A stretch of DNA of 64,000 bases, from NCBI GenBank assembly GCA_041666545.1, contig JBAYGS010000001.1:217942-281941 (forward strand). The letters run 5' to 3'. Below, one piece after another: positions 16,559-44,698 of the stretch. The stretch comes from Minisyncoccota bacterium. GTDB taxonomy: Bacteria > Patescibacteriota > Minisyncoccia > Phycocordibacterales > JBAYGS01. Under the pieces are notes generated by a model. That model saw only the letters and a list, made by a program, of their open reading frames with translations, did no database searches and was not told where the DNA came from. Both the position numbers and the translations under genes were made by a program. Each line of letters begins with the position of its first letter. Position 1 is the first letter of the stretch.

Positions 16559-17551
16559 CTACTTCCCTGCCCCATGGCCGTTTCCGTTCAGAGCCACTTC
16601 CGAGAATTTCCCGTTTTTCGGGTCTTCCTCGGTTGAGAGTGTCCGAAACGAATCCGGATGAGACAAGTTGAACTTGCTCACATGGACGCGATGTTCCGGC
16701 CGGAAGCCTTGCTCCAAGACCTTAGCCACCATCGCTGCAAACTCCGGCGTGGTTTTGACCTTGGTCGAGAGAGCCTGGCGCGGCAAGAGCTGATCAAAGA
16801 CAATCCTCGCTCCGGTCGTGATTGAATTGCCCGAAACATCCGGCTGCCAGAACTGTGAGAGAGTGACGATTCGCGAACCAAGAAAAACCGCTTCCTCGAT
16901 ATCGTGGGTGACGAAAATCACCGTCGTCTTGTACTTCTCCCAAAGCTCCAGGATGAAGACCTGCAACTCTTCACGAGTCGACGGATCCAAAGCCCCGTAG
17001 GGTTCGTCCATGCAGAGAATTTTCGGCATAGCGAAGAGGTCGATTGTAATCAGCGTTTGGGCAATCGCCACTCGCTGTTTCATCCCACCCGAAAGTTCGT
17101 GAGGATACTTGTCCCCGGCGCCTTCGAGCCGAATTTTTTTGAGATATCCTTCGGCCAGCAATCTGGCCTGTCGGTTCCACTTCGGCGACCATAGTTCCCG
17201 CCAAGGATCTGCTTGGTACTTGAGGCTCAAGAGGATATTCCCTAAAACAGTGAGATGTGGAGCCAGAGTGTAATTCTGAAACACCACACCACGCCTGCGA
17301 TCAGGGAAACCGGCCGGACCGCCCATAATTTGAAACTGCAGAGCGGTATCGACTTGCTCCTGCCCAGTAATCAAACGGAGAAGGGTCGACTTGCCACAAC
17401 CGGAAGGCCCGACCATGGTCACGAACTCGCCACTCTTGATTTTGATGTCCACATTGTTGAGCACCACTTTGCGGCCACCCGGAACTTTCGGATCCGGATA
17501 GCCGTGGTAAGCGCTCTCAACCAGAATGTCGTACTTGGTTTTTGTCTCCAT
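16559..17551 (-). CDS. ABC transporter ATP-binding protein, NitT/TauT (SsuB/TauB-like) family, with C-terminal extension
   Basis: Walker A GPSGCGKST, signature LSGGMKQRVAIA, Walker B, H-loop. Confidence 0.85.
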   Translation of the reverse strand: METKTKYDILVESAYHGYPDPKVPGGRKVVLNNVDIKIKSGEFVTMVGPSGCGKSTLLRLITGQEQVDTALQFQIMGGPAGFPDRRRGVVFQNYTLAPHLTVLGNILLSLKYQADPWRELWSPKWNRQARLLAEGYLKKIRLEGAGDKYPHELSGGMKQRVAIAQTLITIDLFAMPKILCMDEPYGALDPSTREELQVFILELWEKYKTTVIFVTHDIEEAVFLGSRIVTLSQFWQPDVSGNSITTGARIVFDQLLPRQALSTKVKTTPEFAAMVAKVLEQGFRPEHRVHVSKFNLSHPDSFRTLSTEEDPKNGKFSEVALNGNGHGAGK

Positions 17552-17560: not shown

Positions 17561-18412
17561 CTAGTTGCTGACTTTGCTATACCAAGCGAAGCAACGCAAC
17601 TTAAGCGAGAGCTTTAGGATGTAGTCGCAACTGTAGGCCAGGGCGGTGATATACATCACATACGGAATAATCAGGGCCATGTTCATGTACCTCTGTTGGA
17701 GGTAAACCCGATAACCCAAACCTTCCGTTGACGCTACCGCTTCTGACGCAATCACAAAGATCCAAGCGGCGCCGAGCGACACTCGAACCAAGTCAATGAG
17801 TCGCGGAAACATCTGTGGCACCACGATGCGCATCAAGACTTCAAACTGCGACGCACCAAGAGTCAATTGCTTGACCTTAACCTCGTTCGGGATTTGCTCC
17901 ACCATTTGTTCGACGCTTCGCGCAATCGGGATCCCGATGCCGAAAACAATCAGAAAAATTTTGGAAGCTTCACCGATACCAAGCGCCACCAAGACGATGA
18001 CTAGCACCGCCAAGGGGTTGATATTTGAGAGGACAGTAATAATCGGCATAAACAAGGACCGCAGGCCCGGGAAAAGTCCGATCATAATTCCGGCCACATA
18101 GCCAAAGACTGCGGAAATACCGACACCGATGGCAAGCCTTCGCAGACTCGCCTTGGTATCTTCGAGGAAAAAATTCTTGCCCGAACGCTTGTCCGGGACA
18201 GTGATTATTTCCTTCATTTCGCCGTACATCTGACTGAAGTACGGCATCAGTTTGTCATCCGGATTTTTTTCGTGACGCTTTTGGGCGATCAGGAAATAAA
18301 CCAGGAGCAAGAGCGCAACCGGCAAGAGTCCGAGAAGTTTTGAAAGCTTCTCGCCCGGTTTGGCATTGATGCCAAAGAATAACGGAGTCCGACAATGGAT
18401 GTTGTTGTCCAT
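17561..18412 (-). CDS. ABC transporter permease, SsuC/TauC-like (BPD inner-membrane component)
   Basis: 6 TM segments, EAA-like loop region. Confidence 0.8.
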   Translation of the reverse strand: MDNNIHCRTPLFFGINAKPGEKLSKLLGLLPVALLLLVYFLIAQKRHEKNPDDKLMPYFSQMYGEMKEIITVPDKRSGKNFFLEDTKASLRRLAIGVGISAVFGYVAGIMIGLFPGLRSLFMPIITVLSNINPLAVLVIVLVALGIGEASKIFLIVFGIGIPIARSVEQMVEQIPNEVKVKQLTLGASQFEVLMRIVVPQMFPRLIDLVRVSLGAAWIFVIASEAVASTEGLGYRVYLQQRYMNMALIIPYVMYITALAYSCDYILKLSLKLRCFAWYSKVSN

Positions 18413-18836: not shown

Positions 18837-19871
18837 TTACTTCAAATAACTGGTGGGATCCTTGTAGTGGATCTTCACATTCTTCGGATTGCCGTAAACC
18901 GACCCATCGGGAAATTCGATCCCGATATGTTGGGCCGACTTCGCACCTTGACCAAGCAGGCCATGATCGAAACAGAACTCCGCCACGGTCTTGGCTGCCT
19001 TCTTAGCTTGCGGGCCGCTGGCAAAAGCCTGCGCATCCGCCGGCTTGTAGAACATGTAGGTCGTCTTCAACTGGGCCTTGAACTCGGCGACCGTACCACC
19101 GGCGAATTTCGCCATGGCCGCAATCGCTTCATCCGTTTTCTTGCCCTGGCCGGTCATGATCTCCATCGCCTCAAACCATGCTCCGACCAGTGCCCTTTTG
19201 ACACCTTCCGGAGCGTCGCGACGAACCACCATAAGATCCTGGATTTCGCCGGGAATCTTGGATGAGTCGAAGACCATCTTCGCGCCGGGCAAATTACGCA
19301 CCTGCATCAAGATCGGGTTCCAGGTGACGCAAGCGCCCTTGGGACCGGAACTGGCGAAGGTGGCACCGATGTTAGCATCCGAAGTGTTGACCTCGGTCAC
19401 ATCGCCGTCCTTCATTCCTTCGGCCTTGAGAGCTTGGGAGAGAAGATAGCTGGAAACCGAGTCCTTCACGATCATGAACTGTCGACCCTTCGCTTCGCGC
19501 AAAGATTTGGCATTCATGAGCACCACTCCGTCGTTGCCGTTCGAGTAGTCACCGACCACGAGGATGTCGGAATCGATACCGCCGGAGGCCGGCATATCGA
19601 GACAGTCCATGATGGTCATCGCGCAACCCACAGCCGAACCGGCGGTGTACTGGTTGATCGAGGTGACATAGTCATTGATGAGGACAATCTCGACTTTCAC
19701 GCCGTGCTTGTCCGCATGCTTTTTCATAATGCCGGAGTCGCTGATGTATTGCCACGGCTCCCAGCCGGTGTAATGGGACCAGAGATACCGATAGGTTTCG
19801 CCGGCCTGCACTGCAGTGGAAGCAACCAAACTGATGATGGTCAAAATAAGAAGGCTGAGGTATTTTTTCAT
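18837..19871 (-). CDS. ABC transporter substrate-binding protein, NMT1/SsuA/TauA-like, with signal peptide
   Basis: MKKYLSLLILTIISLVASTAVQA signal; NMT1-like periplasmic binding fold features. Confidence 0.75.
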   Translation of the reverse strand: MKKYLSLLILTIISLVASTAVQAGETYRYLWSHYTGWEPWQYISDSGIMKKHADKHGVKVEIVLINDYVTSINQYTAGSAVGCAMTIMDCLDMPASGGIDSDILVVGDYSNGNDGVVLMNAKSLREAKGRQFMIVKDSVSSYLLSQALKAEGMKDGDVTEVNTSDANIGATFASSGPKGACVTWNPILMQVRNLPGAKMVFDSSKIPGEIQDLMVVRRDAPEGVKRALVGAWFEAMEIMTGQGKKTDEAIAAMAKFAGGTVAEFKAQLKTTYMFYKPADAQAFASGPQAKKAAKTVAEFCFDHGLLGQGAKSAQHIGIEFPDGSVYGNPKNVKIHYKDPTSYLK

Positions 19872-20035: not shown

Positions 20036-21271
20036 TTAGGCATTGAGAGGGGCACCGGAAGGCTCGAGCTCGAGGCTAATCGTCGAACGTTGCGCGTTGC
20101 CGCGTTCCATCCGACCAATCACCTTCTCTCCTTCGCCAGCCATCCGATCCATCTCCGCAATGTTTTGCGCCATTTGCGGCAAAGCTTCCTGCTTAAACCG
20201 AGAAATGTCGTCAACAGCAGACACCACGTCTGCGAAACACGTCTTCAGCTTATCAAGACTCAGAGATTGCCCGGAAGCCCGCTTGTTGACATCGGCCACA
20301 CCTGTTTTGACAAGTTGGCCCATTTGGACAAGCATTTCGTTGGCAGTCTCATCCATGGCTTCGAGACTCTTCAGAATCACACGCTGATCAGCAAGGGCGA
20401 TTGACGCCGCGGCACCAATCCTGAGAGCATTGACTGTCACCTCTTCACACCGGCGCACTCCGCGAATCAATTCGCGATTAGTACGACGGATAACTTCGAA
20501 GACGATCACGCCGTTCTGATTGATCAGTAGGTTTTGCTGAAGGTCCACGATCCGTTGGCGGAGAGGGAACAAGACTTCTTCGTTAAGAAATTTGCACTTC
20601 TCGCTTTCCGGATCAATGCTGGCAATTTTCTCTGCAAGCTTATCGTCGAGACGTCTCGCAACCTGAACCGTCTTCTGCAGACGCAAGATCAGGCTGCGCA
20701 TTTCCGCTTGATCCTCACTCAGAAAATCGTTGTCCCTCTGCAATTGGGCTGCCCCTTCTCGCATTTGGAAAACGATCGCCTCGATTACGCCACTGGCCGA
20801 TTGGTACTTGGTAAAGTACCGGTTGGCCGTAATCCCCACAAACGGAATGTACGACAACACTCGTCCAAAGGCACCGGGTGCCAAGATGTTGTAGCGAGCA
20901 GGATTGATATGATCAACCTGCACTTTGAGATCAATCAGCGATTTCGCCACCGGCCGACCTTCGGTTGTGGTTGCCAATTTCCCAACTTGTCGATTAAGGA
21001 GGCCGCTTTTGGCGAGCAATCCTTTGACGAGCGGGGCGCCGATTGATTCAACAGCTGCCTCCATCTGGACTCTTTGGCTGGGCTGATTCAGATCACAACC
21101 AAGAATCTTGTCGAGCACTTCTTGAGCGGTTTGATCCACCTGAAGATCGACTTTTTTCTTGCTGTCCAAATCATCCGCGCTCAAAAAACCCAAATCCCTT
21201 CTGACCTGATCAGGTTTTGCAACCTGTAAAGGCGCCACTGGCGCCGCTGACACGAGAACTTGTTCTGACAT
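20036..21271 (-). CDS. TelA-like (toxic anion resistance / YaaN-like) coiled-coil protein
   Basis: 411-aa all-helical Q/L/A/E-rich protein recalling the TelA family; immediately follows an XpaC-like gene as in Bacillus xpaC-yaaN; AGAAAGGAAG RBS. Confidence 0.5.
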   Translation of the reverse strand: MSEQVLVSAAPVAPLQVAKPDQVRRDLGFLSADDLDSKKKVDLQVDQTAQEVLDKILGCDLNQPSQRVQMEAAVESIGAPLVKGLLAKSGLLNRQVGKLATTTEGRPVAKSLIDLKVQVDHINPARYNILAPGAFGRVLSYIPFVGITANRYFTKYQSASGVIEAIVFQMREGAAQLQRDNDFLSEDQAEMRSLILRLQKTVQVARRLDDKLAEKIASIDPESEKCKFLNEEVLFPLRQRIVDLQQNLLINQNGVIVFEVIRRTNRELIRGVRRCEEVTVNALRIGAAASIALADQRVILKSLEAMDETANEMLVQMGQLVKTGVADVNKRASGQSLSLDKLKTCFADVVSAVDDISRFKQEALPQMAQNIAEMDRMAGEGEKVIGRMERGNAQRSTISLELEPSGAPLNA

Positions 21272-21303: not shown

Positions 21304-22161
21304 TTAGGTTTGCTTTTCCACTGGCAAATCGAGAGGATTAACCTTCGATCTGTTATTGACTCGATTAATCAGACCGACCAATTCACTCATGGCACCTTCC
21401 AACTCGCCATTGCCTTGACCTTTGATTTTGAGCGCAGCGGAGCCGGCCTGATCGATAGCTGTGAGCACTTCTTCGTTTCGAGCCAAAAGCTCGGCGACCT
21501 CAGCTTGGCTGTCGTCGTAAAGCTTGGCTCGCTCCTCCAAAGTTTTCACAGTTCGCTCGTCAGCCGAAGTGCGTATCAACTTTCTTTTCAACAAGTCGAG
21601 CTTCCTCGAAATATCACCGCGATTGATATCGCTGATGTTAGTGAGAATGTTCGCAACTCGCTCCAAATTACTGACGGCAGAAGCGTAAACCACTTCTGCC
21701 GAACCCAGAAATCTGGTAAAAGACAGCTCGCCTTCGTTGAGAACTCGGGAAAGAACAGTTCGCAGATTTTCAAACTTGTCTGCCAACTGCCCGACCTGTT
21801 CTCGACCTTGATTGCAACCAAGTTTTTTCAAGTCAGTCGCAACCGTCTCCAACTTTTGCTCTTTCATGACTTCAAATCGATCGTGAAGCTCCGCGTAATA
21901 CCTTTGCAGGCACGCGTCGCGTCCACCGAAAAATTTGATGGCCCAATTGGCGGCACCGACGAAGGTGCAACCGGCGGCAATCCCAAGCGCTGCCGGGACT
22001 GTCACCATGCCAAAAAGTCCCAAACCAAATCCTGCCGCCACGCCTAGGGCCGGGGGCCAAAGGGTAAGCGGATGCTGAATCGTATCTGACAAAGCCGCCC
22101 TGCGAGCGGCCGTTTCGCTGTAATCCAGCTCAACTGACGCGCCTTTCGGGTTTTCGTTCAT
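21304..22161 (-). CDS. XpaC-like membrane protein (two TM helices + long coiled coil)
   Basis: TM pair (LGVAAGFGLGLFGMVTVPAALGIAAGCTFVGAANWAIKFF) followed by helical region; AGAAAGG RBS; identity by architecture and synteny only. Confidence 0.45.
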   Translation of the reverse strand: MNENPKGASVELDYSETAARRAALSDTIQHPLTLWPPALGVAAGFGLGLFGMVTVPAALGIAAGCTFVGAANWAIKFFGGRDACLQRYYAELHDRFEVMKEQKLETVATDLKKLGCNQGREQVGQLADKFENLRTVLSRVLNEGELSFTRFLGSAEVVYASAVSNLERVANILTNISDINRGDISRKLDLLKRKLIRTSADERTVKTLEERAKLYDDSQAEVAELLARNEEVLTAIDQAGSAALKIKGQGNGELEGAMSELVGLINRVNNRSKVNPLDLPVEKQT

Positions 22162-22389: not shown

Positions 22390-24033
22390 TCAGACACCGA
22401 TCTGATGAAGCTTTTGCACATTGGCAATCTGGTCCATGAAGTCGTGCGTGAACTCCCGCAATGCATCTCCATGGTCCATGCCAAACTCCTGCCGTGCGAT
22501 ATTGTCGACGGCTCCGACCAGATCCGCATCGGTCAAACCTTCGGTCGGCTCCGGCTTCAAGAGTTCCCGCTCCAAAGCCAGACGCTTGGCATCGGCGACA
22601 ATCGCCGGAATCATAGACCCACTCACAATATGGGCCAAGGTGAAGTCAACAGTCGTACCGTCAGCCTTCTTGATTTCGTAGATTCTCCGCTCCGGAGAAA
22701 AAACCGAAATCGCGCCGACTTCGGCCAACAATTCAGCCGAGGTAGTGGAGGAAATCGCCACACCCTTAAAGTTCTTGAGAAAGATTTCCCGAACCGCTAC
22801 CTTCGTGGGCCGTTTGATTTCGATTTTCACATCGATTCGACCGGGCCGAATTGCCGCACTATCCAAACTCTCCGGCTTGTTGGTCGCCAGAATCACAATC
22901 GCGCCCGATTCCCGCACGCCTTGCATCTGCGCCAGAAAGGCCGGCACAATCGTCTTCAAGACATCACTCGAAATCCCCGAATCGCGTTTGGCCAAAATCG
23001 CTTCAGCCTCGTCGATGAAGATAACCGCCATGATGCCGGTCCGACGATAGAACTCGCGGGCTCGCGCAAAGATGTGGCGGATGGTCGCTTCCGGCACGCC
23101 GACATACTTGTCGAGCAACTCCGGACCAGAAACCAGGATGAAGCCGCCTTTGGGACTCACACCTTTCTCTTCGCAACGTTTGACCAAGGAAGTGTAGACC
23201 GCCTTGGCAAACATTGTCTTGCTACAACCCGGAGGGCCGTAGAGCAGAAAGCCGGCCGCCGGCTTCTTGCCAAAGAATTTGTAATGCTTTGGAAAGCGCA
23301 TCGGCCTCTCCATCGAGTCCAAGAACAACGCCTTGGCCGCTTCTTGGCCACAAATGTCGTCCCAAGTGATGCCGGTCGCCTGATCGAGCTCAAACGAGTC
23401 GTCTTCGAGACCGTAATTTTCGAGCACGATCGCGAGGGCCGAGTCGAGTACGACTCGGCCATTCGGAACCAGTTTGCCAGCAAACTTACCGGCAAAAACT
23501 GTCCGGCGTCCACCCGAAACATCTACCACCGCCAATTCCTTGTCGATAATCTGGGAGACGAAAGCGATGCTACCGGTCGGAACTGCGGGCTCCACACCAA
23601 CGGCGCGGAGAGTTTCGCGTTCCAGCTTGACCACATCACCCGGTTCGATGTTGAGACCGTCGATCGGCACCTCAATCATCTGACCCGAGTAATTCACGGT
23701 CGCAAACCGCTCTTTTTCGCCTTCGGCGAGTTCCAGATCGCAAGCGCCACCCTGCACACCGAACATACCGATGCGATAACGATTTTTGGCACCGTCAGGA
23801 AAGCTGACCCACGACCAGCCCTCTTCCCTCGGGTCTGGCGCAAAAATCCGGCCAACCCCTTTCGGGGCTGAAGCGGCAAACTTACTGCCGGGATTAACCG
23901 TGACCAGAGTCCCAGTTTTCCGGAGCATGCTCGGAGTCGGTTTCGGCATCCGAGAACTCACTTTGAGAACTGTCGCCTGAACCAGAGGGTAACGAATTGG
24001 ATTTTGTTCCAAGTCTTGATTGAAGTCTGTCAT
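22390..24033 (-). CDS. AAA+ ATPase, classical (CDC48/FtsH-like) clade, with ~270-aa N-terminal beta-rich domain
   Basis: ITWDDICGQEAAKALF...LLYGPPGCSKT (Walker A), IFIDEAEAIL (Walker B), ILATNKPESLDSAAIRPGRID (SRH); start at ATG 24033 with AAAGGAAA RBS (track start 24087). Confidence 0.85.
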   Translation of the reverse strand: MTDFNQDLEQNPIRYPLVQATVLKVSSRMPKPTPSMLRKTGTLVTVNPGSKFAASAPKGVGRIFAPDPREEGWSWVSFPDGAKNRYRIGMFGVQGGACDLELAEGEKERFATVNYSGQMIEVPIDGLNIEPGDVVKLERETLRAVGVEPAVPTGSIAFVSQIIDKELAVVDVSGGRRTVFAGKFAGKLVPNGRVVLDSALAIVLENYGLEDDSFELDQATGITWDDICGQEAAKALFLDSMERPMRFPKHYKFFGKKPAAGFLLYGPPGCSKTMFAKAVYTSLVKRCEEKGVSPKGGFILVSGPELLDKYVGVPEATIRHIFARAREFYRRTGIMAVIFIDEAEAILAKRDSGISSDVLKTIVPAFLAQMQGVRESGAIVILATNKPESLDSAAIRPGRIDVKIEIKRPTKVAVREIFLKNFKGVAISSTTSAELLAEVGAISVFSPERRIYEIKKADGTTVDFTLAHIVSGSMIPAIVADAKRLALERELLKPEPTEGLTDADLVGAVDNIARQEFGMDHGDALREFTHDFMDQIANVQKLHQIGV

Positions 24034-24215
24034 ATCATTTCCTTTTTTTGAGTTTTTCCAAATAACAATCTGAAATATGTTTAGCATAAAACAATGATTT
24101 TGTCAAACAAAAAACCGGTAGTGCCTCCCAGTCTTATGCATCGCCCGGACCCGCCGGACGAAATAAGATGGAAGACACCACCGGTAAACTCAGCCGACTA
24201 ATCGGCCCAAACCAG

Positions 24216-25790
24216 TCAGTAGGATTCGGCCATGAGCGTAATCTCCACTCGTGGCAGACGATACCCATACGCCCGATCAGATTCGCCCGGGGCCCGAGGC
24301 AAGGGTTTCTTGCCACCGAAGCCTTCGGTCCGCATTCGGTTTTCGTCAATCGAATAGGTAATCGAGAGATACCTCGAAACCGATTCGGCCCGCTGTTCCG
24401 AGAGGGTGGCATTGGCAGTCTGGTCACCATCAAGCGAGGTGTGTCCGCCGATAAGAATCCGAAAAGTCGGATAGTGCTTCAGCCTTTCGACCGCCGCGTC
24501 CAACTTTTCTTTCTCGGAAACTCCTAACTCAGAAGAGCCGGTCTGAAAGATAATCGGGTCAACCCGAATACTTCCGACTGATCGAAGCTTGCTCCACTGC
24601 GCCGGAGTCAAAACCTTGAACGACCGCGCCAGCGCCGCCGTCGGATCGAGAGCTTTGACTCCCCCATCGAGACTTGCGAAACCGGTCCGCAAACCATTTT
24701 GGTAAATCGCCGTAATGAAGGTGCTGTTGATAATCCGATAAGGATCTTTGTCCGGTAAGGGACTCTCCTTGAAGTCGCCGGCCTCCAAAAGAATGGAGAC
24801 TGTCGAACCAATCGTATCAACCAAGCCTTGCTCAGCAATCTGCCCAGGACCGCTCACTCCAAACCACTCTTGGCAATTCTCGCTAAGATTTACAAAGCGT
24901 ACGCCATCGAGCATGGTCTGGATTGCCTCCTTGGGCACCTTGAGTTCGTCGTGAATGTCCTTCTTAAACTCTTCGGGGTTGTCGGCATAAAACTTCAACA
25001 CTCGGAAGTAGGTTTTGAGGAACAGGTCAACCCGCTCCGGATACTTGGTGGCAAACTCGCGGTTCACTACCAAAATATCGACTACGGCCCGGCTGATGCT
25101 TTCCGTCCCGATAATCTTGCCAACGCCCGGAATCTGCAGAGCCTTGGAGACATTCGGCTCCCAGAGTATTGCCATCGAAACTTTTTTGCTCTGCAACAGG
25201 CGCAAGGCTTCTTGAGAATCTTTGGTCTCGAAACGATGTTCGCGATCAAGATTTTTCAGAGCCGGCACATTGAAGTGCGAAGCGACCGTTTTTAGCAATT
25301 GATGACTCGGCGAACCTTGCGTGTAAGCAATCCGTGGCGAGACCCCACTTTTCAGCGAGTCGAGGTTTTGCACCAAATTGGTGTAGGCCACGATTGCGTC
25401 ATCGCCTTTGGATTCGTCGATGACCATGATAATCGTCGCCGGAAAATCGTGGGCGGCGGCGTTCAGGATTTCGGAGTCGACTGTCATCACCGCAAAGTCC
25501 AATTTGCCATCGCGCAGATTTTTATTCCGCGCTTGGTAATCGGCTCCGTCGTTCTGACACTCGAGCAAATAGCCCTCGTTGCGAAGGAACTTTTTCATCC
25601 GTCCGGAACTGACCGGGAAATACCCGATCCAATCGTCGTAGGCCAAAGTAATCTTGGCTTTGACATCTTTGGCGTCACTCGTTTTCTTCTGCAAATGGCT
25701 TTTGACCATGAGCAGAATTTTGAACGCGCCGAAGATGCCCAACATCACCACGACCATAACGATAAACGGGGCGAAGCTACTTTTTTTCAT
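24216..25790 (-). CDS. membrane-anchored fusion protein: NMT1/SsuA-like substrate-binding domain + C-terminal OmpA-like peptidoglycan-binding domain (paralog 2)
   Basis: N-terminal TM; ITLAYDDWIGYFPV binding-domain start; C-terminal OmpA_C motifs (LIGGHTSLDGDQTANATLSEQRAESVSRYL, RMRTEGFGGKKPL, RLPRVEITL); AAAAGGATAAAAATG RBS. Confidence 0.7.
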   Translation of the reverse strand: MKKSSFAPFIVMVVVMLGIFGAFKILLMVKSHLQKKTSDAKDVKAKITLAYDDWIGYFPVSSGRMKKFLRNEGYLLECQNDGADYQARNKNLRDGKLDFAVMTVDSEILNAAAHDFPATIIMVIDESKGDDAIVAYTNLVQNLDSLKSGVSPRIAYTQGSPSHQLLKTVASHFNVPALKNLDREHRFETKDSQEALRLLQSKKVSMAILWEPNVSKALQIPGVGKIIGTESISRAVVDILVVNREFATKYPERVDLFLKTYFRVLKFYADNPEEFKKDIHDELKVPKEAIQTMLDGVRFVNLSENCQEWFGVSGPGQIAEQGLVDTIGSTVSILLEAGDFKESPLPDKDPYRIINSTFITAIYQNGLRTGFASLDGGVKALDPTAALARSFKVLTPAQWSKLRSVGSIRVDPIIFQTGSSELGVSEKEKLDAAVERLKHYPTFRILIGGHTSLDGDQTANATLSEQRAESVSRYLSITYSIDENRMRTEGFGGKKPLPRAPGESDRAYGYRLPRVEITLMAESY

Positions 25791-25836
25791 TTTTATCCTT
25801 TTTGATTGGTTTTAAAGGTTCACAAATCTGTTTCCC

Positions 25837-25864
25837 ACTATACACATAAAATTTGTTTTGTCAA
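25837..25864 (-). promoter_or_regulatory. candidate sigma-70 promoter TTGACA-16-TATAGT; identical -10/leader block to 22224
   Basis: Minus-strand TTGACAAAACAAATTTTATGTGTATAGTGGGAAACAGATTTGTG. Confidence 0.5.
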
Positions 25865-25889
25865 CATAAATTCTGGATGGCTTTCTTAT

Positions 25890-25935
25890 TCGCATGCCCT
25901 GCCTGCCGGCAGGCAGGCCTATTCGTAAGGGTTCT
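25890..25935. repeat. palindromic repeat module copy with perfect 20-bp palindrome CCTGCCTGCCGGCAGGCAGG (25898-25917) flanked by TATTCGCATG / CCTATTCGTAAGGGTTCTTAACA
   Basis: Lies between the VWA-gene terminator and the 25837 promoter. Confidence 0.75.
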
Positions 25936-25945
25936 TAACAAAAAA

Positions 25946-25973
25946 GCCCCACACATGCATGCACGTGTGGGGC
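25946..25973 (-). terminator. intrinsic terminator (CCCCACACGTGCATGCATGTGTGGGG + T-tract, minus strand) after the VWA gene
   Basis: Read in sequence. Confidence 0.65.
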
Positions 25974-25987
25974 GACTGACATTGCAA

Positions 25988-26713
25988 CTAGAACTTGTCG
26001 GACTCGGCCAACACCTCCGCCAAACCCTTTTCAAGGTCCGCCGGATTGTTGGCTTCCTTGTAAACCGTTCGTCCCGGTTGATTGAGCGAGTGCCGGCTAC
26101 CAATGTGGAAGCCAATGGTGTGAATCACTACGGGTGAATCCCGCAAGATGATGTTCACATCATTTCCCGGATCAAAGCCTGCGTTGGCTTCCCCGTCGGT
26201 CACAATGACCAAGTGGTACTCGCCATAGCCAAGTTGCCGAACCGCTTGCTTGCGCAGTTGTTCGTAGCCGAGGCGAACCGCACTCGAGAGCGGAGTCGCA
26301 CCGCCGGCACCAGCTGACTGTACAGTTTGGTAGAACTGCTTGCGATTGTTAACCCCCAGGGGCACTCTTTCGGAGGGTCCGTTCGAGTCGAAGATGGCCA
26401 AACCAAGAGAAGTCTCGGCCGGGATTTTCCGACCAAAGGCTTCAATTGCCCGCTTGGCCGTCACAATCTTCGGCTCGCCGTTCTTGGCATCCGCCATACT
26501 GCCGGAGCAATCAAAGACGAGGTAGATGTTTCGTCGCATCAAATCGGCGTCGAGCACCACGCCCTTGGTCTCCACTCCCTTGATCCAGACATCTCCGAGA
26601 CGACTGGGATTGGGCGGAGCGGCCGTGGCCTGACTCGGCGGTTGATCGCCACAGCCCGAGATGATGAACACCCCGAGGAACAGTAAACCGAAGCGCTTGA
26701 TGAGCTTATTCAT
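25988..26713 (-). CDS. lipoprotein with von Willebrand factor type A (VWA) domain
   Basis: Lipobox LFLGVFIISGC; MIDAS motif DCSGSM; LVIVTDGEANAG; ATGA overlap with upstream gene. Confidence 0.8.
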   Translation of the reverse strand: MNKLIKRFGLLFLGVFIISGCGDQPPSQATAAPPNPSRLGDVWIKGVETKGVVLDADLMRRNIYLVFDCSGSMADAKNGEPKIVTAKRAIEAFGRKIPAETSLGLAIFDSNGPSERVPLGVNNRKQFYQTVQSAGAGGATPLSSAVRLGYEQLRKQAVRQLGYGEYHLVIVTDGEANAGFDPGNDVNIILRDSPVVIHTIGFHIGSRHSLNQPGRTVYKEANNPADLEKGLAEVLAESDKF

Positions 26714-28449
26714 TTCGCACCTCCCGCCGGCGCGAAGACCTGCATTTCAGTGTCACCAACAGGGATGAGATTGAACACCACCCGCATGTTGGAAGCCCAC
26801 TCTTGTTGAGTCTTGGGACGGATTGGTTCGCCATTCGCAATGCCGGTCTTGGGTTGTTCAAACCCGTGACCAACCACCGCATATTGCGACGGGTCCATCA
26901 CCACACCCTTCGACTTGGCGTAGTTGAGCAAGCTTTCCCGAACCGCGATTGCCCGCGTCAAGGAAAGATTCTTGGCCGACTGCCGCAAACGCGACAGAAC
27001 CAACTCCGGCGCATTCGCCAATTTCTTGTCGATATACTGCGTCGGGTCGGCATGACCCTCAACCGTGAGAATCGCACCGCCGTAGGTAGCTGCCAATTCA
27101 ATCGCCTTGTCATAATCAGCCTTGTACAGTTCAGCGTTGAAGCTGTTCTGGTTCGGGCTGAAGTAGATTTCGAGTGAAAGAATCGAGCCGTTGGCCAGGG
27201 GTCCTTGCTTCGTCCTTTGGTCAATAACTTTGGCAACTTCGCTCACTTGAAACCGAGGAGTTTCGCTCGCCACGGTTTGAGTCAGACCCCTTTTCAGAGC
27301 TTCGTAATCAAACCCGGCATGGGATAGACCGACCTTGCTGGTCAGAAGACCCATCGCGAGAAATGCATCCTGCATCTCCTTCGTCAAGGTCTCAAACTTA
27401 CGAACTTCCGTCGGTGTCGCAAAGAACTTCACGTTCCCCACATAGCCGACAAACTCACAATCGCCGTAAAGTCCCTTGGCATCAGCAACCGCCTGCTCGC
27501 TGTCGAGTAAGATTTTCGCCGAAGCCGTCATCAACTTGTCATACTCGGCCTTGCGATTGGCACTACCGATTACGAGCTGACTGAGACTTTCCTGAGCCGA
27601 CAGAAGTGCATGGACGAACTTTCCAACCTCCGCTTTATGAGCCTCGAAGTAATCGCTTCTCACTCCGTAAACATCGGGAATGATTCGGCTGGCAAGGGTG
27701 CGGAGAAGGATTTTCGCCCCCTTCACCGACCCTTCAGAGCCGGTGCCGACGGTGCCGTTTGAAGTCAAAGCCGCCGCATCGGGCGAGATGACAAAACAAG
27801 CGTCCACAGAGGGATCCTTCTTGAAGGCCTCGCTAGGAGCTTCCGCCGTACCCGTCAAGTCTTTCACCCAGCGGATTTTGACGTCGCTCATCTGGAGGCC
27901 GGCACTCTTGAGGACCGTGGCAAGATATTCAACATGCGGGCTGTAGGCCTGCAAGCAGACGGTCTTGCCTTTCAAATCCTTGATTGTATTGATGCCGGAT
28001 TTAACCACCAAGCAGTCGCCACCAGATGACCAGGTCATCTGGTAGATGACAACCAATTTGGTGCGCGGGTCCTTCGCTGTCAATTCGGAAGCCTGATTCA
28101 TCATTCCTGCTGTGCCCCGCAGATACGGAGTCACGCCGGAAATATAATGCTCCAACTGCTTGGCGAAAACATCCTCGCGAACCAACTTGAACTTCAAACC
28201 GGCTTGGGCGAAGATACTGCCTGGCGCCGTATTCACGCCACCGCCATTCGCATGGATGGTGGCGATGTCGCCACCCCAGGTGATAATCGGAAGCTCCATC
28301 ACGGAACCTTCCTGAACCGGGCCAACCTTCGTCTTGACCACCTCGGTAAGAGGCGGCGAAGCGATGTACTGGGCCGCGGGGAGACTTAGACTGAACGCCG
28401 CCAAAAGGCCCACAAAAACTGCGAGCAACTTTATCTTGTATTTTTTCAT
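26710..28449 (-). CDS. secreted fusion protein: NMT1/SsuA-like substrate-binding domain + C-terminal OmpA-like domain (paralog 1)
   Basis: Signal peptide MKKYKIKLLAVFVGLLAAFSLSLPAAQ; C-terminal OmpA_C motifs (ILTVEGHADPTQ, LSLTRAIAVRESL, NMRVVFNLI); start ATG 28449 with AGGAAAGG RBS (track extension to 28515 rejected). Confidence 0.7.
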   Translation of the reverse strand: MKKYKIKLLAVFVGLLAAFSLSLPAAQYIASPPLTEVVKTKVGPVQEGSVMELPIITWGGDIATIHANGGGVNTAPGSIFAQAGLKFKLVREDVFAKQLEHYISGVTPYLRGTAGMMNQASELTAKDPRTKLVVIYQMTWSSGGDCLVVKSGINTIKDLKGKTVCLQAYSPHVEYLATVLKSAGLQMSDVKIRWVKDLTGTAEAPSEAFKKDPSVDACFVISPDAAALTSNGTVGTGSEGSVKGAKILLRTLASRIIPDVYGVRSDYFEAHKAEVGKFVHALLSAQESLSQLVIGSANRKAEYDKLMTASAKILLDSEQAVADAKGLYGDCEFVGYVGNVKFFATPTEVRKFETLTKEMQDAFLAMGLLTSKVGLSHAGFDYEALKRGLTQTVASETPRFQVSEVAKVIDQRTKQGPLANGSILSLEIYFSPNQNSFNAELYKADYDKAIELAATYGGAILTVEGHADPTQYIDKKLANAPELVLSRLRQSAKNLSLTRAIAVRESLLNYAKSKGVVMDPSQYAVVGHGFEQPKTGIANGEPIRPKTQQEWASNMRVVFNLIPVGDTEMQVFAPAGGAK

Positions 28450-29220: not shown

Positions 29221-29339
29221 CCCCGTTAGAGATAGGTCGCCGCAACGACGACCGTAGCAGTTAAGGTGTCTCCGGTGTTCTAAACAAAAAGGAGTTTGGC
29301 TTTGTGACTGCCATTCTTAACAAAAAATCTCTAACGTGG
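29221..29339. mobile_element. MITE-like element copy 3 (119 bp), TIR CCCCGTTAGAGAT/ATCTCTAACGTGG, flanked by 4-bp direct repeat TTGA
   Basis: TIR, internal hairpin GGTCGCCGCAACGACGACC and sub-terminal TTCTTAACAAAAAA shared with copy 2; TTGACT immediately outside right TIR. Confidence 0.7.
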
Positions 29340-29416
29340 TTGACTTCCTACTTGAATATGATAATTATAGGTCAGAGTTCAAGCACAAAACCGAACTCGG
29401 AAAAGAAAGGAAAAGT

Positions 29417-29695
29417 ATGAAGAAGGAAGAGATCATTGACGCCATCAAAGTTAAAGGTGGCGAACTGCTCCAGAAGGTCAAAGACATCATCGCCAAAGGC
29501 AACGCCAGCAAAATCCGCATCAAGGGTGAAGACGGCAAGACCGTTGCCAGCTTCCCCATCAATGTCGGCCTCATCGCCACCATCGGCGCGCCTGTCTTCG
29601 TCGCCGTTGGCGCGATGGCCGCGGTCATCAACGACTGCACAATCGAGGTGGTTCGAAAGACGGACGATAGCGAGAAATCCAAGAAAAAAAAGTAG
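29417..29695 (+). CDS. hypothetical small protein (92 aa, hydrophobic central segment, Lys-rich tail)
   Basis: GAAAGGAAAAG RBS before ATG 29417 (track 29336); terminator follows. Confidence 0.5.
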   Translation: MKKEEIIDAIKVKGGELLQKVKDIIAKGNASKIRIKGEDGKTVASFPINVGLIATIGAPVFVAVGAMAAVINDCTIEVVRKTDDSEKSKKKK

Positions 29696-36645: not shown

Positions 36646-38331
36646 TTAATCAGTGGAATTTTTCTTGCGACCTGCCAACATTAGACCAACGAAAGGCCCG
36701 ATGAGTTCGGCAAGGGTCAAACGGCTAGTGTCCCGCCAATCACCGCGCGGGATAGTTTGCAGGACGAGAGCGTGAATCAGGATATGCAGTTGGAGTTCTT
36801 CCAACCGGCGATCCGATGATTCACAGGCCACCCAATGGGGATGCCGGATATTGATGTGGAGTACGCCAGCTTCAGCGTCCAACTGCCAAAGATCATCCGA
36901 ACCTTCCATCAAACTGTGATTGAAGCGGAGACCGAGACTGTTGCGCTTGACCGGCACCCGAAGACCACCACTAGGAGAATCGACCACGAGCGGATGATGC
37001 TCTGGCTTTTCATCTGTCGGTGGCTTCGGCACCGCGACCGGATCAGGATCCTTGCTCGGTTCCTTTTCCTTACCGGCGCCACCTCCGACTGCCGTACCAG
37101 TAAACTCCTCGCCCTCAAGCACCTTCGTGTCATCGGGTTTAGTGTGTCTGGTACCAACACTGCCAATCTTGAAACTCTTAATGACGCCGAGCAGGCCCGC
37201 GAAAGCTTCAGTCTTAATCACCGACTGAAATCGCTCGAGAGTTTGAATTCCCAAACGAACATAGCGCTCTTCGGTTTGAGTCTTAACCGTCTCTTCGTAG
37301 TAGCTTGAACCGACGCCGACAAACCAGGCATTAATTGCCGTACAAAAGCCCCTCAAGGCTTCGTTGGCAATGAACTTCTCCCGGCCGACATGCAGCTCAA
37401 GCTTGGTGCCGACAATTTCGCCCTCGAAAACTCCGGAGGACAGTGCTTCCGCCACGTCCGGCAGAAGCCAATCCTCATCTTTCACCTGACGAAGCATCTT
37501 CGAGAGAGCGAATGTGTAAGGATTGTTGACAATCCCGACTTTTACCACGCCCCGCCGCCGACCACGCTGATCAGCTTGAGCAAGCCAGAGCCGAAAGTAG
37601 CTCATCCCGCAGGCAGGATCATCGATAAACTCGTCGGTCAGTTGTTTGCCGGTATAGGCCCGACCTGAAAAGCTGCCTCTGGCAAGCTCGCCATCTTCGT
37701 CAACGAAATCGACAAACACCACAACCTTATGCTTCAACAGCACGACATTGTAGCGCTCGATAATTCCGGAACGAAGCGACTCGGTAGACATCCGGCGCGT
37801 AATCGCGTCAGTCGTAGTTTCGTAGAGTCGAACTTCAGTGTTCCACTCCACATCACGAATATCACGCCGCAAACGGTTGGGAATATAGATCTCGCCAACC
37901 TGGCGACGAATGTCTTCGGTCACGAATTCCCACTCGACAAAATGGTCGGAACTGCCTCTCAACTTTGAAATGAAGGTGTTCCGTTTGCATTTGCCAAGAG
38001 GACTGATGAGACCTTGGCCAAACCGACCAAACTTGTCGGTCACATCAATCTTGGATGAAACCAAGCAGGAAGTCAGCGCCCTGTCGAAGTTTTCCCGACT
38101 CGTGCCGCCGCCGTTATCCCGAATGATGATTTGGTTCTTTTTCTGATCGACATAGATCCAGATTTTGGTTGCGTTAACATCCAAAGCGTTCTGGACCTGT
38201 TCGAAAATGACGAGCGGTAGTGTCCGATAATCTTCGGCAAACCGCAGGAGTCCAATTCCTAACGGATAAGCCACCCGGCTAAGGTTGCGAGTGCCACTTG
38301 TAGGCGACAGCTCAACTGTTGCAGTGCTCAT
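36646..38331 (-). CDS. GHKL/Bergerat-fold ATPase (HATPase_c) protein, 561 aa, no kinase, MutL or Hsp90 accessory domains recognisable
   Basis: N-box EQVQNALDVNAT, G1 box IRDNGGG, G2 box GRFGQGLIS; CGAGGAAAAAAATG RBS; 15 nt after the HTH gene. Confidence 0.75.
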   Translation of the reverse strand: MSTATVELSPTSGTRNLSRVAYPLGIGLLRFAEDYRTLPLVIFEQVQNALDVNATKIWIYVDQKKNQIIIRDNGGGTSRENFDRALTSCLVSSKIDVTDKFGRFGQGLISPLGKCKRNTFISKLRGSSDHFVEWEFVTEDIRRQVGEIYIPNRLRRDIRDVEWNTEVRLYETTTDAITRRMSTESLRSGIIERYNVVLLKHKVVVFVDFVDEDGELARGSFSGRAYTGKQLTDEFIDDPACGMSYFRLWLAQADQRGRRRGVVKVGIVNNPYTFALSKMLRQVKDEDWLLPDVAEALSSGVFEGEIVGTKLELHVGREKFIANEALRGFCTAINAWFVGVGSSYYEETVKTQTEERYVRLGIQTLERFQSVIKTEAFAGLLGVIKSFKIGSVGTRHTKPDDTKVLEGEEFTGTAVGGGAGKEKEPSKDPDPVAVPKPPTDEKPEHHPLVVDSPSGGLRVPVKRNSLGLRFNHSLMEGSDDLWQLDAEAGVLHINIRHPHWVACESSDRRLEELQLHILIHALVLQTIPRGDWRDTSRLTLAELIGPFVGLMLAGRKKNSTD

Positions 38332-38345
38332 TTTTTTCCTCGTGT

Positions 38346-39047
38346 TTAGCGTTTATCAGCTCCGCGAGCTTTTTCGCCGCAGAGTCGATTGAGATGATTC
38401 GCGAGCTTAAAGATGCTGGTCGCACCGGCCAACTCCCTGAGTTTGTTTCTCTCTTCCGGAGTAAAACCGTCCGAAACCACCAACTGGGCGAGTGGCAAAA
38501 TTGCCTGAACCTGGAAGGCCAAGGCCGAGATTATAAGATCGTGACTGAGATCGGTGTGAATGTTGGCTTCGAATACCGGAACAACTTGCTCTCCCGCCGA
38601 CGACGATTCGCCGGCCGTGAAGACCCGGATTTTCTGAACCAATTCGGCTTGCTTCAGGGCCAGAAATTCCGCAATCTTTTTGAGCCGAACAGGATAAACT
38701 CCGGACCGACCCAAAAGAACTCGCATCAGCGAGTGCGCATTGGGATAGTCCGCAACCTTGGCCGCCTCCCCGAAAGTTATGACCTTAAAGGCCACCAACC
38801 TGCCCAATTCCAACACTTCAGGACTAATCCCTTTCAGTTCGGAAACTTCACAACCGTGGGCATCCAAAAAGTAGCGGAGCCTGACCAAGTTTTCGCCTTC
38901 TGGCATTCTCTTGGTGACAATCCAGTTTTGGACAGTATTCGGATGAAGACCGGTGAATTCCACAATCTTGGCAATTTCCAACGGGTGCTTCGAAACCAAC
39001 TCTGTAAAGCAAAACTCTACACTTCCAGATATTTTTTCCATTTGCAT
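38346..39047 (-). CDS. HTH-domain protein (233 aa)
   Basis: Helix-turn-helix-like LEIAKIVEFTGLHPNTVQNWI; GAGAAAGG RBS; own promoter upstream. Confidence 0.5.
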   Translation of the reverse strand: MQMEKISGSVEFCFTELVSKHPLEIAKIVEFTGLHPNTVQNWIVTKRMPEGENLVRLRYFLDAHGCEVSELKGISPEVLELGRLVAFKVITFGEAAKVADYPNAHSLMRVLLGRSGVYPVRLKKIAEFLALKQAELVQKIRVFTAGESSSAGEQVVPVFEANIHTDLSHDLIISALAFQVQAILPLAQLVVSDGFTPEERNKLRELAGATSIFKLANHLNRLCGEKARGADKR

Positions 39048-39114
39048 CCTTTCTCATTAACTAGCGTTTTCAAAAGCTAAAAGCGTTGGCTTTGAGCTAA
39101 ACTATTCTGTCCTA

Positions 39115-39142
39115 AATATACATAACTAACTAGATTTGTCAA
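39115..39142 (-). promoter_or_regulatory. candidate sigma-70 promoter TTGACA-16-TATATT for the HTH-GHKL unit
   Basis: Minus-strand TTGACAAATCTAGTTAGTTATGTATATT. Confidence 0.45.
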
Positions 39143-39162
39143 CAATTTTTGGTATTTAAAAA

Positions 39163-39182
39163 CCCGCCACTTTGGGCGGGTT
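39163..39182 (-). terminator. intrinsic terminator AACCCGCC-CAAAGT-GGCGGGTT + T5 after the ParB-like gene
   Basis: Read in sequence. Confidence 0.7.
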
Positions 39183-39207
39183 GTCTCACTCGAAAAACTT
39201 TGACGAA

Positions 39208-40050
39208 TTAGGGCTTCTTTCCCGGCTTGGCCAGTTTGCGGTTGGCATCAAAAGATGCCTCAAACCGTCGTTCCCATTCCTTGAATGACTTCTCCGTCCG
39301 CCTGACCAAACGCTTCACGTGGCAGATAATCGCCTTGGCTGAAGTCTCCGAGATGGTACCATCATCAACACCATTCTTGAGTGTCCTCATTTGGCGAGCC
39401 ACACTCGCCGAATGACTACGGAACTTGGTACTGAAGGCCGCGTTGAATTCTCCGGCACCGATTTTCTTGACCGGCTTGCCCGACAATTTGCCCCGAAGAG
39501 TCCGACCGTCGACCTCGTATCTCGCCGCCGCCTCCACAACCGTGAGCCCTTCGTCAACAACTGCGTGGACTGCTTGATTGAGCCGCGCCTCGGCAATGTT
39601 TGACTTGGCATCATCCACTACCCGAATGGCAAATTCGCGCGGGAAGCCGCTGATTCCAATCAGCTGATCGATAATCTGGCGCCGCGTCTGCTTTTGTTTG
39701 AAAAGCAACTCGGCGGTATGGACCAAATCCTGTTGAGTCGGCGGCAGAGACCCGCCCAGATTGGCTTGGCAAGCCAGAACGATGAGCTTCGTCCGGTCTT
39801 GCTCCTTCGCAATGCCGAATTCAGCTTCAACCACTTCAAGGCGCTCGAGGGCCGCGAAGCGATGCCGACCATCCACCAGATTGTCAGACTGATCAATTAC
39901 CGGCAGATCAACCGCCGCCTTAGCCGCGTAAAGGCCCATAAAAAAAGCCACTCGACTTTCAATGAGGTGAGTCCGGACATAAAACGGCACTTTGACAACT
40001 GCAAGCTTGCGATTTTCCCGACGACTGATTTCAATACCGTTGAGTTGCAC
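39208..40050 (-). CDS. ParB/sulfiredoxin-fold (ParB N-terminal nuclease-like) domain protein
   Basis: PVIDQSDNLVDGRHRFAALERL matches the ParB-N DGxHR core; GTG start with GAAAGGA RBS. Confidence 0.55.
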   Translation of the reverse strand: MQLNGIEISRRENRKLAVVKVPFYVRTHLIESRVAFFMGLYAAKAAVDLPVIDQSDNLVDGRHRFAALERLEVVEAEFGIAKEQDRTKLIVLACQANLGGSLPPTQQDLVHTAELLFKQKQTRRQIIDQLIGISGFPREFAIRVVDDAKSNIAEARLNQAVHAVVDEGLTVVEAAARYEVDGRTLRGKLSGKPVKKIGAGEFNAAFSTKFRSHSASVARQMRTLKNGVDDGTISETSAKAIICHVKRLVRRTEKSFKEWERRFEASFDANRKLAKPGKKP

Positions 40051-43459: not shown

Positions 43460-44698
43460 TTACTCATACCTTAGGGCCTCAATCGGACTTTTCTTAGCCG
43501 CCTGTTTAGCCGGATAAACTCCGAACACCAGACCAACTGAACCGGAAACCGCCAGGCCGATAATGAGCGCCAGATAAGGGAAATCGTACTGCCAGCCCAG
43601 TCCAACCACTTTGCCAATTATAATTGAGGCGCCAAAAGAAATAATTACCCCCAGAATGACTCCGACCAACCCGCCGAGCAAAGTTAGAATAACCGCCTCA
43701 AATAAAAATTGAAGCATAATGTCGCGATTGGAAGCGCCGACAGCTTTGCGTAAACCAATTTCTTTCGTTCGTTCCGTCACCGACACTAGCATAATATTCA
43801 TGATGCCAATACCGCCAACTACCAGAGAAATCGCGGCCACCGCCACCAAAAATAAGGTTAGCGCTGTAGTGATGACACTAAGCCGGCTCGCCAAGTCAGC
43901 TTGAGTTTGCACGAAAAAGTCATCTTTGCTCGGGTCACTAATCGAGTGATTGGCCCGCAAAGTCCTCTCCACATCAAACACGGTAGCCGAAATCAATTCT
44001 TCAGACTCGGCCTCAATCATAAAGCGGTGAAAGTATTTGATGCCGAAAATAAATTGTTGAGCCGTGGTATAGGGCACGATCGCCACCTCGTCAAAATTGA
44101 AAAAAGAAACCTGGCCTTTGGCCGCCAAAACTCCGACTACCCGAAAAGTCCGGCCTTTAATTTTGATTTTTTGTCCCAAAGCGTCGCTCTGTCCAAAAAG
44201 TTCTTTCTTGACCTTGGAACCGATTACCACCACATCGGCCCGACCACGAACATCATCTGCCGTTATAAAAGATCCGGTCTCCGGTTCCATGTCAAAAATC
44301 TGGGCCATTGCCTCCGAGGCACCGAAAATCGTCAATCGATAGGTTTCGTTGTCATAAGATGCCTGTTCACCGCCAAAAACCACCGGCACAATTTTGGCGA
44401 TTGTCGGAGCATTTATTTTTTGTCGCAGAGACTCGAGATCCTTCTGCTTAAGCGAATCGCTAAAAATCTGAGCCGAATCGGCCGGCCCGCTTGGTTCTCG
44501 GCCCGGGATAACCACAACAGTTTTTGAACCCATGCCCTGGATCTGACCAAGGATTAGATTTTGCGCGCCGTTGCCCAAGGAAACAATCACAATAATCGCC
44601 ATAATACCGATAACGATGCCGAGAATCGTCAAAATCGAGCGGCTTTTATTCACCGAGAGACCTCTAACCGCCGTTCTGGCTATATGTTTCAGAGTCAT
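43460..44698 (-). CDS. ABC transporter permease, FtsX/MacB-like
   Basis: N-terminal TM, large periplasmic domain, C-terminal FtsX 3-TM bundle. Confidence 0.85.
   Translation of the reverse strand: MTLKHIARTAVRGLSVNKSRSILTILGIVIGIMAIIVIVSLGNGAQNLILGQIQGMGSKTVVVIPGREPSGPADSAQIFSDSLKQKDLESLRQKINAPTIAKIVPVVFGGEQASYDNETYRLTIFGASEAMAQIFDMEPETGSFITADDVRGRADVVVIGSKVKKELFGQSDALGQKIKIKGRTFRVVGVLAAKGQVSFFNFDEVAIVPYTTAQQFIFGIKYFHRFMIEAESEELISATVFDVERTLRANHSISDPSKDDFFVQTQADLASRLSVITTALTLFLVAVAAISLVVGGIGIMNIMLVSVTERTKEIGLRKAVGASNRDIMLQFLFEAVILTLLGGLVGVILGVIISFGASIIIGKVVGLGWQYDFPYLALIIGLAVSGSVGLVFGVYPAKQAAKKSPIEALRYE

Follow-up and report, generated by a model that had tools for sequence, protein, structure and literature searches.

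Introduction

Why would a bacterium join a domain of the substrate-binding type to an OmpA-like domain, and which solute would such a protein bind? The question is raised by a locus in a stretch of 64,000 nucleotides (nt), the whole of which is called the window here, from contig JBAYGS010000001.1 of a Minisyncoccota bacterium (assembly GCA_041666545.1, positions 217,942 to 281,941), where two genes code for fusions of this kind. The longer product (579/601 amino acids, aa) is designated L601, the shorter one (524 aa) S524, and the free substrate-binding protein (SBP, 344 aa) of an importer encoded nearby SBP344. In an original prediction, made from the sequence alone, the two fusions had been regarded as paralogs of an uncommon architecture, which in a presumed monoderm cell could serve as wall-anchored capture or sensor modules, feeding the adjacent ATP-binding cassette (ABC) importer or signalling to an AAA+/VWA pair. 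The present analysis showed that L601 and S524, together with a VWA-domain lipoprotein, are the invariant core of a widespread, horizontally mobile cassette of eight to nine genes; its comparison with a guanidine transporter points, tentatively, to a guanidinium-type cation as ligand.

Domain Structure of the Two Fusion Proteins

Both open reading frames (ORFs) are present on the minus strand as predicted, L601 at 26710..28449 and S524 at 24216..25790. The ORF of L601 extends to 28515; position 28449 is an internal methionine (MKKYKIK...), from which the residues of L601 are numbered here and at which the NCBI record (P0119, 579 aa) places the identical start. Each protein consists of an N-terminal signal or anchor, a type-II binding domain of the TauA/SsuA kind and a C-terminal OmpA-like domain. 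The fusion as such had thus been recognized correctly, as judged from Pfam, AlphaFold2 (AF2), Foldseek and hhalign, and so had the type-II periplasmic binding fold of the middle part.

In L601 a signal peptide is followed by the binding domain (aa 51–~390, nt ~28299–27280), which passes the Pfam NMT1 model (30.9 bits, cutoff 20.5), and by a divergent OmpA-like domain (aa 424–563, nt ~27180–26761). The AF2 model of S524, which was built from a 56-sequence alignment and reached a pLDDT of 87, contains an N-terminal helix (aa 6–36, the transmembrane (TM) anchor), the binding domain (aa 45–~345, nt ~25658–24756) and the OmpA_C domain (aa 403–521, nt ~24584–24228); the model of L601, from 43 sequences, reached a pLDDT of 84. 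With both models the best Foldseek match in the PDB was TauA (6ssy), with E values of 4e-16 for S524 and 6e-13 for L601, followed by SsuA, Thi5 and ThiY, and the target TM scores of the TauA matches were 0.68–0.78. These structural matches identify the middle domains as type-II binding-protein folds. Sequence identity to the SsuA/TauA/ThiY/NMT1 family, which provided the top structural matches of both domains (TauA 6ssy, SsuA 2x26, 3ksx), was just 12–18%. Both fusion proteins remained below the cutoff of the SsuA_fam model TIGR01728 in NCBIfam (64.3 and 50.9 bits versus 163.5; E value for S524 1e-17), and taurine SBP equivalog models gave 20–28 bits versus cutoffs of 304–490.

Relatives of S524 carry the PGAP name [quoted passage not shown], and in IMG both domains are named. 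Some homologs have weak matches to the phosphonate-binding family PF12974. No family or structure of the PstS or phosphate-binding type was among the matches listed (Pfam, the best 25 of 31 for S524 in NCBIfam, PDB and Foldseek), and therefore the word "phosphate" in the PGAP name appears to be without support.

The C-terminal domains had been called unmistakable OmpA_C domains. For S524 this was confirmed, with 55.5 bits for PF00691 (gathering cutoff 27.2; residues 415–506) and a match of the C-terminal region to PDB 5wtp at 4e-24 in a profile search. L601 reached only 20.2 bits with the same model, so that the wording was too strong at the level of the single sequence. The domain itself is supported: AF2 gave a beta-alpha-beta-alpha-alpha-beta-alpha-beta arrangement for residues 424–563, precomputed PF00691 matches exist for many homologs of L601, and hhalign aligned the domain with that of the S524 family (94.9%, E 4.6e-8), L601 having an insertion of 16 residues between the conserved Asp and Arg. 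For these two residues we take Asp271 and Arg286 of Acinetobacter baumannii OmpA as a reference; they are presumably the contacts to the carboxylate of diaminopimelate (DAP) and equivalent to the Asp of the GHTD motif and the Arg of LSxxRA. In the L601 family GH[AS]D468, R499 and N554-M-R556 are invariant. In the S524 family R467 is invariant, position 452 of the canonical Asp is occupied by G in 24, S in 19 and D in 4 sequences, and the neighbouring D456 is retained in 55 of 56. Thus, L601 has the weaker Pfam score and, with its invariant canonical Asp and Arg, would appear to have the more orthodox site for binding to the wall.

A beta-alpha-beta-alpha-beta-beta domain at the C-terminus and the invariant Arg of LSxxRA are features which both families share with Pal, YiaD, MotB/PomB and TssL, and the topology of an N-terminal anchor plus OmpA domain links S524 with MotB and YiaD. 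The fusions differ from these proteins in that an entire binding-protein domain is placed between anchor and OmpA domain.

The relationship between the two fusions is more distant than the term "paralogous" had suggested. Pairwise BLASTP showed no recognizable similarity (E = 3.7), and kinship of their binding domains became visible only from profile to profile (hhalign 96.7%, E 3.9e-10). Homology can therefore be maintained, but these comparisons argue for two old, separate families of like architecture and not for recent paralogs.

The Invariant Core and Its Distribution

Nine consecutive minus-strand genes fill the window from 28515 to 16559, with L601, the VWA protein and S524 as the first three. 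The VWA-domain lipoprotein (241 aa, 25988..26713, −; Pfam VWA, 38.5 bits) starts within a 4 bp overlap with the stop of L601. It possesses a lipobox (IISGC) and a complete metal ion-dependent adhesion site (MIDAS; D68xS70xS72, T140, D173), which is invariant in 51/51 homologs. The homologs are anchored by a lipobox or by an N-terminal TM segment. Asp often follows the lipobox Cys; in Escherichia coli this residue causes retention in the inner membrane, and the protein is accordingly predicted to be exported and tethered to the cytoplasmic membrane.

The nine window proteins were compared by tblastn with 82 loci from many phyla, and co-occurrence was counted in the 47 informative loci, i.e., those with enough flanking sequence. 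Gene order was the same almost everywhere. L601, the VWA protein and S524 were each present in 47/47 loci, a membrane protein of 285 aa in 43, SBP344 in 40, the permease in 39, a TelA-family protein and the ABC ATPase in 38 each, and an AAA ATPase of the type found in the window in 11. The proposed link of the fusion proteins to the adjacent importer is thus well founded, since the genes for SBP, permease and ATPase are found together with the pair in 38–40 of the 47 loci.

Word-indexed searches retrieved 118 full-length relatives of S524 (28–67% identity) and more than 1,500 relatives of L601 (52–71%). An exhaustive search for relatives gave 268 clusters at 50% identity (E <= 1e-30), and among GTDB species, each represented by one genome, at least 415 were found to encode a relative. 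Carriers are Desulfobacterota including cable bacteria, Gammaproteobacteria, Burkholderiales, Elusimicrobiota, Verrucomicrobiia and several metagenome-assembled genomes of the Candidate Phyla Radiation (CPR); the majority are diderm. The whole cassette is also found on six large Vibrio plasmids of 240–320 kb. With this distribution, and with names for the fusion already in use by PGAP and IMG, the architecture can hardly be called uncommon.

On these Vibrio plasmids (L083, NZ_AP025146.1 10982–30397, and five others) the cassette is complete, with the ABC ATPase gene upstream of the L601-VWA-S524 triad, and is situated near PRTRC-system and RctB replication genes. A family of ~340 aa without a Pfam match adjoins the cassette or sits inside it in seven loci (for example L012:16662-17681, L035:16366-17403, L048, L061, L030 and L031:15249-16238). 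In two gammaproteobacterial genomes a divergent DUF6471 gene, which could be a regulator, lies directly upstream (L001:7176-7499, −; L002:6963-7286, −).

No published account of this gene combination was found in the literature searched. The cassette as a unit therefore appears to be undescribed, while the fusion proteins themselves are new members of database families. Some resemblance exists to the FtsZl1-vWA-OmpA operons, for which membrane remodelling was predicted (Makarova and Koonin 2010, PMC2875224): these are likewise conserved operons with exported, MIDAS-intact VWA proteins, OmpA-like proteins and a cytoplasmic membrane-associated component. However, their OmpA proteins are not SBP fusions, and the cassette lacks the FtsZ-like GTPase and the protein kinase and has TelA and an ABC importer instead.

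The Importer and Its Putative Ligand

The last three genes of the cassette encode SBP344 (18837..19871, −), a permease of the NitT/TauT type (283 aa, 17561..18412, −; Pfam BPD_transp_1) and an ATPase (330 aa, 16559..17551, −; Pfam ABC_tran). The top NCBIfam matches of the permease were TauC, SaoP and NtrB, each under cutoff, and those of the ATPase, also under cutoff, were to nitrate- and taurine-type ATPases. SBP344 passed TIGR03427 ("putative urea ABC transporter substrate-binding protein") with 406.7 bits versus a cutoff of 333.9; the fusion proteins, with 30.8 and 21.6 bits, are not members. This family was defined through linkage to genes for "urea carboxylase", which were reportedly shown later to act on guanidine.

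GimA (Sll1080) of Synechocystis is a SBP of the NitT/TauT type which binds guanidine with a dissociation constant of 97 nM, as determined by isothermal titration calorimetry, and for which W59, W62, D135, F205 and D233 were proposed as binding site by docking into an AlphaFold model (PMC12704784, 2025 PNAS). SBP344 contains W37, W40, D114, W184 and D212, with a spacing of 3/74/70/28 as compared to 3/73/70/28 in GimA, and these five residues are kept in 56–58 of 58 homologs from the cassettes. A corresponding set is present in S524, namely W54, Y57, D131, W210 and D238, of which the last four are invariant in 56/56 members of the family and position 54 is aromatic in 56/56. BLASTP and hhalign agree in aligning D114, W184 and D212 of SBP344 with D131, W210 and D238 of S524. 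L601 retains invariant D145 and D259; the tryptophan is absent, and D61 would lie close to where the second aromatic residue is situated, according to a reading of the ITWGGD motif and not to an alignment. The residues conserved in the cleft, being acidic and aromatic, would suit a cation rather than a sulfonate anion. SBP344 looks like a guanidine receptor of the GimA type, as far as can be judged from its sequence, and S524 has the residue set in common with it.

The remainder of the Synechocystis system (GimABC, Sll1080–1082) offers likenesses and differences. The permease and ATPase of the cassette are of the same NitT/TauT type. However, GimA is a plain SBP without a wall-binding domain, unlike the fusion proteins, and gimABC adjoins genes for guanidine hydrolase under control of a guanidine-I riboswitch and NtcA, neither of which was found at the cassette.

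SBP344 and its 58 homologs (loci L001–L082), including copies from genomes labelled CPR, have a signal peptide of the cleavable type, and a lipobox is present in none. A SBP without an anchor is unexpected in a monoderm or in a cell without outer membrane. The mature N-terminus of SBP344 carries a nearly invariant AWSHYTGWEPW motif.

The pattern in S524 bears on the question whether a small ligand is involved at all. The binding-protein fold might instead serve as a scaffold between proteins, with the fusions and the VWA lipoprotein linking membrane and wall in the manner of Pal or YiaD. This would be in accord with the observation that the VWA protein with its MIDAS is always accompanied by two OmpA-like domains, and the top NCBIfam matches for the C-terminal domain are models of the anchor lipoproteins YiaD and PA1041. 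But the invariant residues of S524 coincide with the cleft positions conserved in SBP344, which is the pattern expected of selection on a ligand pocket, and a purely structural tether is considered quite improbable.

A Proposed Model for Tethered Capture

From these data a model of capture and hand-over by tethered receptors is suggested, which we regard as possible, with a chance somewhat short of even. In this model L601, the VWA protein and S524 would form a fixed assembly outside the cytoplasm. The N-terminal helix of S524 would fix this protein in the membrane and its OmpA-like domain would probably attach it to peptidoglycan, while L601 would be held on the wall; the VWA lipoprotein would probably bridge the two fusion proteins via its metal site. 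S524 would most likely bind the same small guanidinium-type cation as SBP344 and could act, in the gap between membrane and wall, either as a non-diffusible receptor which captures the ligand and hands it over near the permease, or as a buffer. L601 would probably bind a related ligand or act as a regulatory partner. TelA, the 285-aa membrane protein and, in some lineages, the AAA unfoldase would work on the cytoplasmic face. Of the original idea of a wall-anchored capture or sensor module, the connection with the importer would be preserved and would be strengthened by the putative ligand residues which S524 shares with SBP344; the proposed signalling to an AAA+/VWA pair did not hold, as described below.

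Several observations weigh against tethered capture. The match to GimA consists of residue numbers and spacing only, not of a sequence alignment, and the GimA site is itself a docked model. For the two N-terminal aromatic residues the methods disagree: BLASTP pairs W37/W40 with W54/Y57, whereas in hhalign the two are displaced by three residues inside an aromatic ladder. Neither a guanidine riboswitch nor any other riboswitch was detected in the window or in 12 loci at the gathering threshold of Rfam. Clustering of 579 flanking ORFs revealed no recurrent guanidine-catabolic or other metabolic gene; it gave only signalling proteins, two more types of AAA proteins and one family of 340 aa. Since the S524 family has not retained the Asp with which OmpA-like domains canonically bind DAP, attachment of S524 to peptidoglycan is less certain. 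One or more importer genes are missing in 7–9 of the 47 informative loci, where ligand could not be handed over to a permease encoded by the cassette. Finally, a pure uptake model leaves the roles of TelA, the 285-aa membrane protein and the AAA ATPase unexplained.

Membrane and Cytoplasmic Components

The AAA ATPase of the window (565 aa, 22390..24087, −) has an N-terminal region resembling Mpa/ARC. It matches Pfam AAA (PF00004) with 99 bits and the NCBIfam model pup_AAA with 244 bits, the latter under cutoff, and its PDB matches are Cdc48 (D2), VAT and Mpa, i.e., members of the classical unfoldase clade. Since no TM segment is present, the protein is predicted to be cytoplasmic. This type is confined to Verrucomicrobiia and genomes labelled CPR and represents a lineage-specific insertion into the cassette.

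Signalling of the fusion proteins to an AAA+/VWA pair had been proposed, and such a pair might be imagined to work like the MoxR-VWA chaperone systems; both gene types are present inside the cassette of the window. But the ATPase is a member of the classical AAA clade and not of MoxR; it is missing in 36 of 47 loci, in all of which the VWA gene is present; and a cytoplasmic ATPase cannot form a pair of the MoxR type with a VWA protein which is exported and anchored by lipid or a TM segment. Because of the wrong clade, the different compartments and the poor co-occurrence, this explanation was rejected as extremely unlikely.

In lineages without the ATPase of the window, 10 more loci have AAA proteins of other types beside the cassette, which brings the total to three types in 21 of ~80 loci and suggests that an unfoldase was recruited repeatedly. 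One of these types (~495 aa) contains AAA_lid_3 and occurs in six loci (L011, L012, L018, L022, L045, L064); the other (~730 aa), with ankyrin repeats, two AAA domains and AAA_lid_6, occurs in four (L052, L062, L074, L082).

The 285-aa protein (21304..22161, −) consists of one hydrophobic hairpin of two TM segments (aa ~37–71), followed by a long helical, coiled-coil-like cytoplasmic tail, and falls outside all Pfam families. Its gene directly precedes that of the TelA-family protein (411 aa, 20036..21271, −; Pfam TelA, 168.4 bits versus a cutoff of 30), which is cytoplasmic and for which the PDB search yielded no relative. A gene for a small hairpin membrane protein directly before telA recalls the XpaC-TelA (YaaN) pair; we take this likeness to be architectural only. 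The XpaC family PF10112 was not among the matches of the 285-aa protein itself, nor among the 25 most-matched Pfam families of 55 family members at E <= 1, and an identification as XpaC was rejected for want of Pfam or PDB support. Also, the XpaC-TelA pair of Firmicutes is not known to be linked to SBP-OmpA, VWA or ABC genes.

With a hairpin protein as a MotA-like partner, S524 could be imagined as the plug of a stator, similar to MotB, TolR or ZorB. As in MotB, a TM helix at the N-terminus is followed by a periplasmic part and then by an OmpA-like domain, and ZorB and MotB models match weakly over the latter. However, its TM helix contains no conserved acidic residue, the supposed partner has one hairpin as compared to 3–4 TM helices in MotA, ExbB and TolQ, and a binding-protein domain of 300 aa is inserted between TM helix and OmpA-like domain. 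Owing to the missing acidic TM residue and the lack of a multi-TM partner the stator was rejected; we would give it hardly any chance at all.

The same components allow the cassette to be viewed as a sensor, in which the tethered domains would report ligand occupancy across the membrane and feed no transporter. The signal would pass through the TM helix of S524 and the 285-aa hairpin protein to a TelA module, remodelled by an AAA protein where one is present, and the envelope would be protected from a toxic cation; guanidine is in fact toxic at millimolar levels (PMC12704784). Cassettes free of importer genes exist (loci L002, L010, L057 and L070, with L601, VWA, S524, the hairpin protein and TelA only), the three AAA types have been recruited beside the cassette as described above, and TelA/XpaC pairs are reported to belong to envelope-stress regulons of Firmicutes (PMC3498285, PMC6811118). 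Against this, the TM helix of S524 is without any conserved residue, the first near-invariant position being D39; the cassette encodes no recognizable signalling domain; and importer genes are found in ~80% of loci. A sensor is rather unlikely.

A further possibility, which we judge unlikely too, is a trans-envelope system in which the two tethered receptors and the MIDAS lipoprotein would detect a guanidinium compound on the outer side of the membrane, with detection being coupled to import as well as to membrane protection by AAA-remodelled TelA. Guanidine in the free state could be sensed in this way, or else arginine side chains in cationic peptides.

Host and Origin of the Cassette

The genes rpoD (409 aa), dnaG (560 aa) and rpoC (1229 aa) are consecutive in the window (57313–63999, −). 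RpoC (60310–63999) is 70–83% identical to proteins of Taylorbacteria, Paceibacterota and Patescibacteria, its nearest relatives, and the host is therefore a CPR bacterium, as had been presumed. The cassette itself has a G+C content of 52.3% as compared to 46.6–47.3% in the rest of the window, and 55–71% at third codon positions as compared to ~49% in housekeeping genes. Its proteins are closest to those of Verrucomicrobiia (57–77% identity), and no synteny of the flanks with CPR-labelled relatives was found except for one small ORF. On account of the foreign base composition, the identity to Verrucomicrobiia and the non-syntenic flanks, the cassette was probably acquired horizontally. A rationale based on the monoderm envelope of CPR cells is not supported, since most carriers are diderm.

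The small ORF (119 aa, 29336–29695, +), the sole similarity found in the flanks, is encoded on the strand opposite to the cassette, ~800 bp away on its upstream side. In one CPR-labelled relative (L013:6891-7139) a counterpart with 44% identity immediately precedes the cassette. Two further regions of the window may be mentioned. A tripartite-efflux gene set, consisting of a MacB-type permease, an ABC ATPase and a HlyD-like adaptor (43460–46971, −), is present in an organism which presumably has no outer membrane. At 36646–40050 (−) a GHKL ATPase of 561 aa (HATPase_c_3) with a G+C content of 52.6%, above the window mean, is accompanied by two ORFs without family match (38346–39047 and 39208–40050); this region may be a second foreign island.

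Mobility brings to mind a conflict system, i.e., an envelope defence of the Ter/TelA kind against phage or xenobiotics, with the fusion proteins as wall-tethered sensors at the surface. TelA was proposed to build sub-membrane structures which block the entry of phage or xenobiotics (PMC7824862), and the patchy distribution over many phyla, the carriage on plasmids, the foreign base composition with non-syntenic flanks and the replacement of AAA ATPases by non-orthologous types would fit. But PADLOC-DB v2 gave matches only to generic OmpA (ZorB) and AAA (IetA, TRIP13) domains, genes for a nuclease, a toxin or another effector are absent, and a nutrient-type ABC importer is tightly linked. We consider defence a very doubtful function, with a small chance of being correct.

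Implications

Every domain of the cassette is familiar, and the fusion had already been named by annotation pipelines; what is new, with respect to the literature searched, is the cassette as a unit. It joins an invariant triad to TelA and to an importer with a GimA-like binding protein, and it occurs in hundreds of species from at least six phyla and on plasmids. A testable hypothesis on its ligand is now available. If the prediction of the ligand is true, the cassette would provide the first concrete physiological context for TelA-family proteins, would add to what is known of guanidine uptake and tolerance, and would be an example of binding proteins which are attached to the wall and not free to diffuse. 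If the trans-envelope system should prove to be true, a new device for envelope stress or defence would have been recognized, which is spread by plasmids and reaches CPR bacteria. For the CPR host of the window, the locus would document that a complete envelope system was taken over from diderm bacteria.

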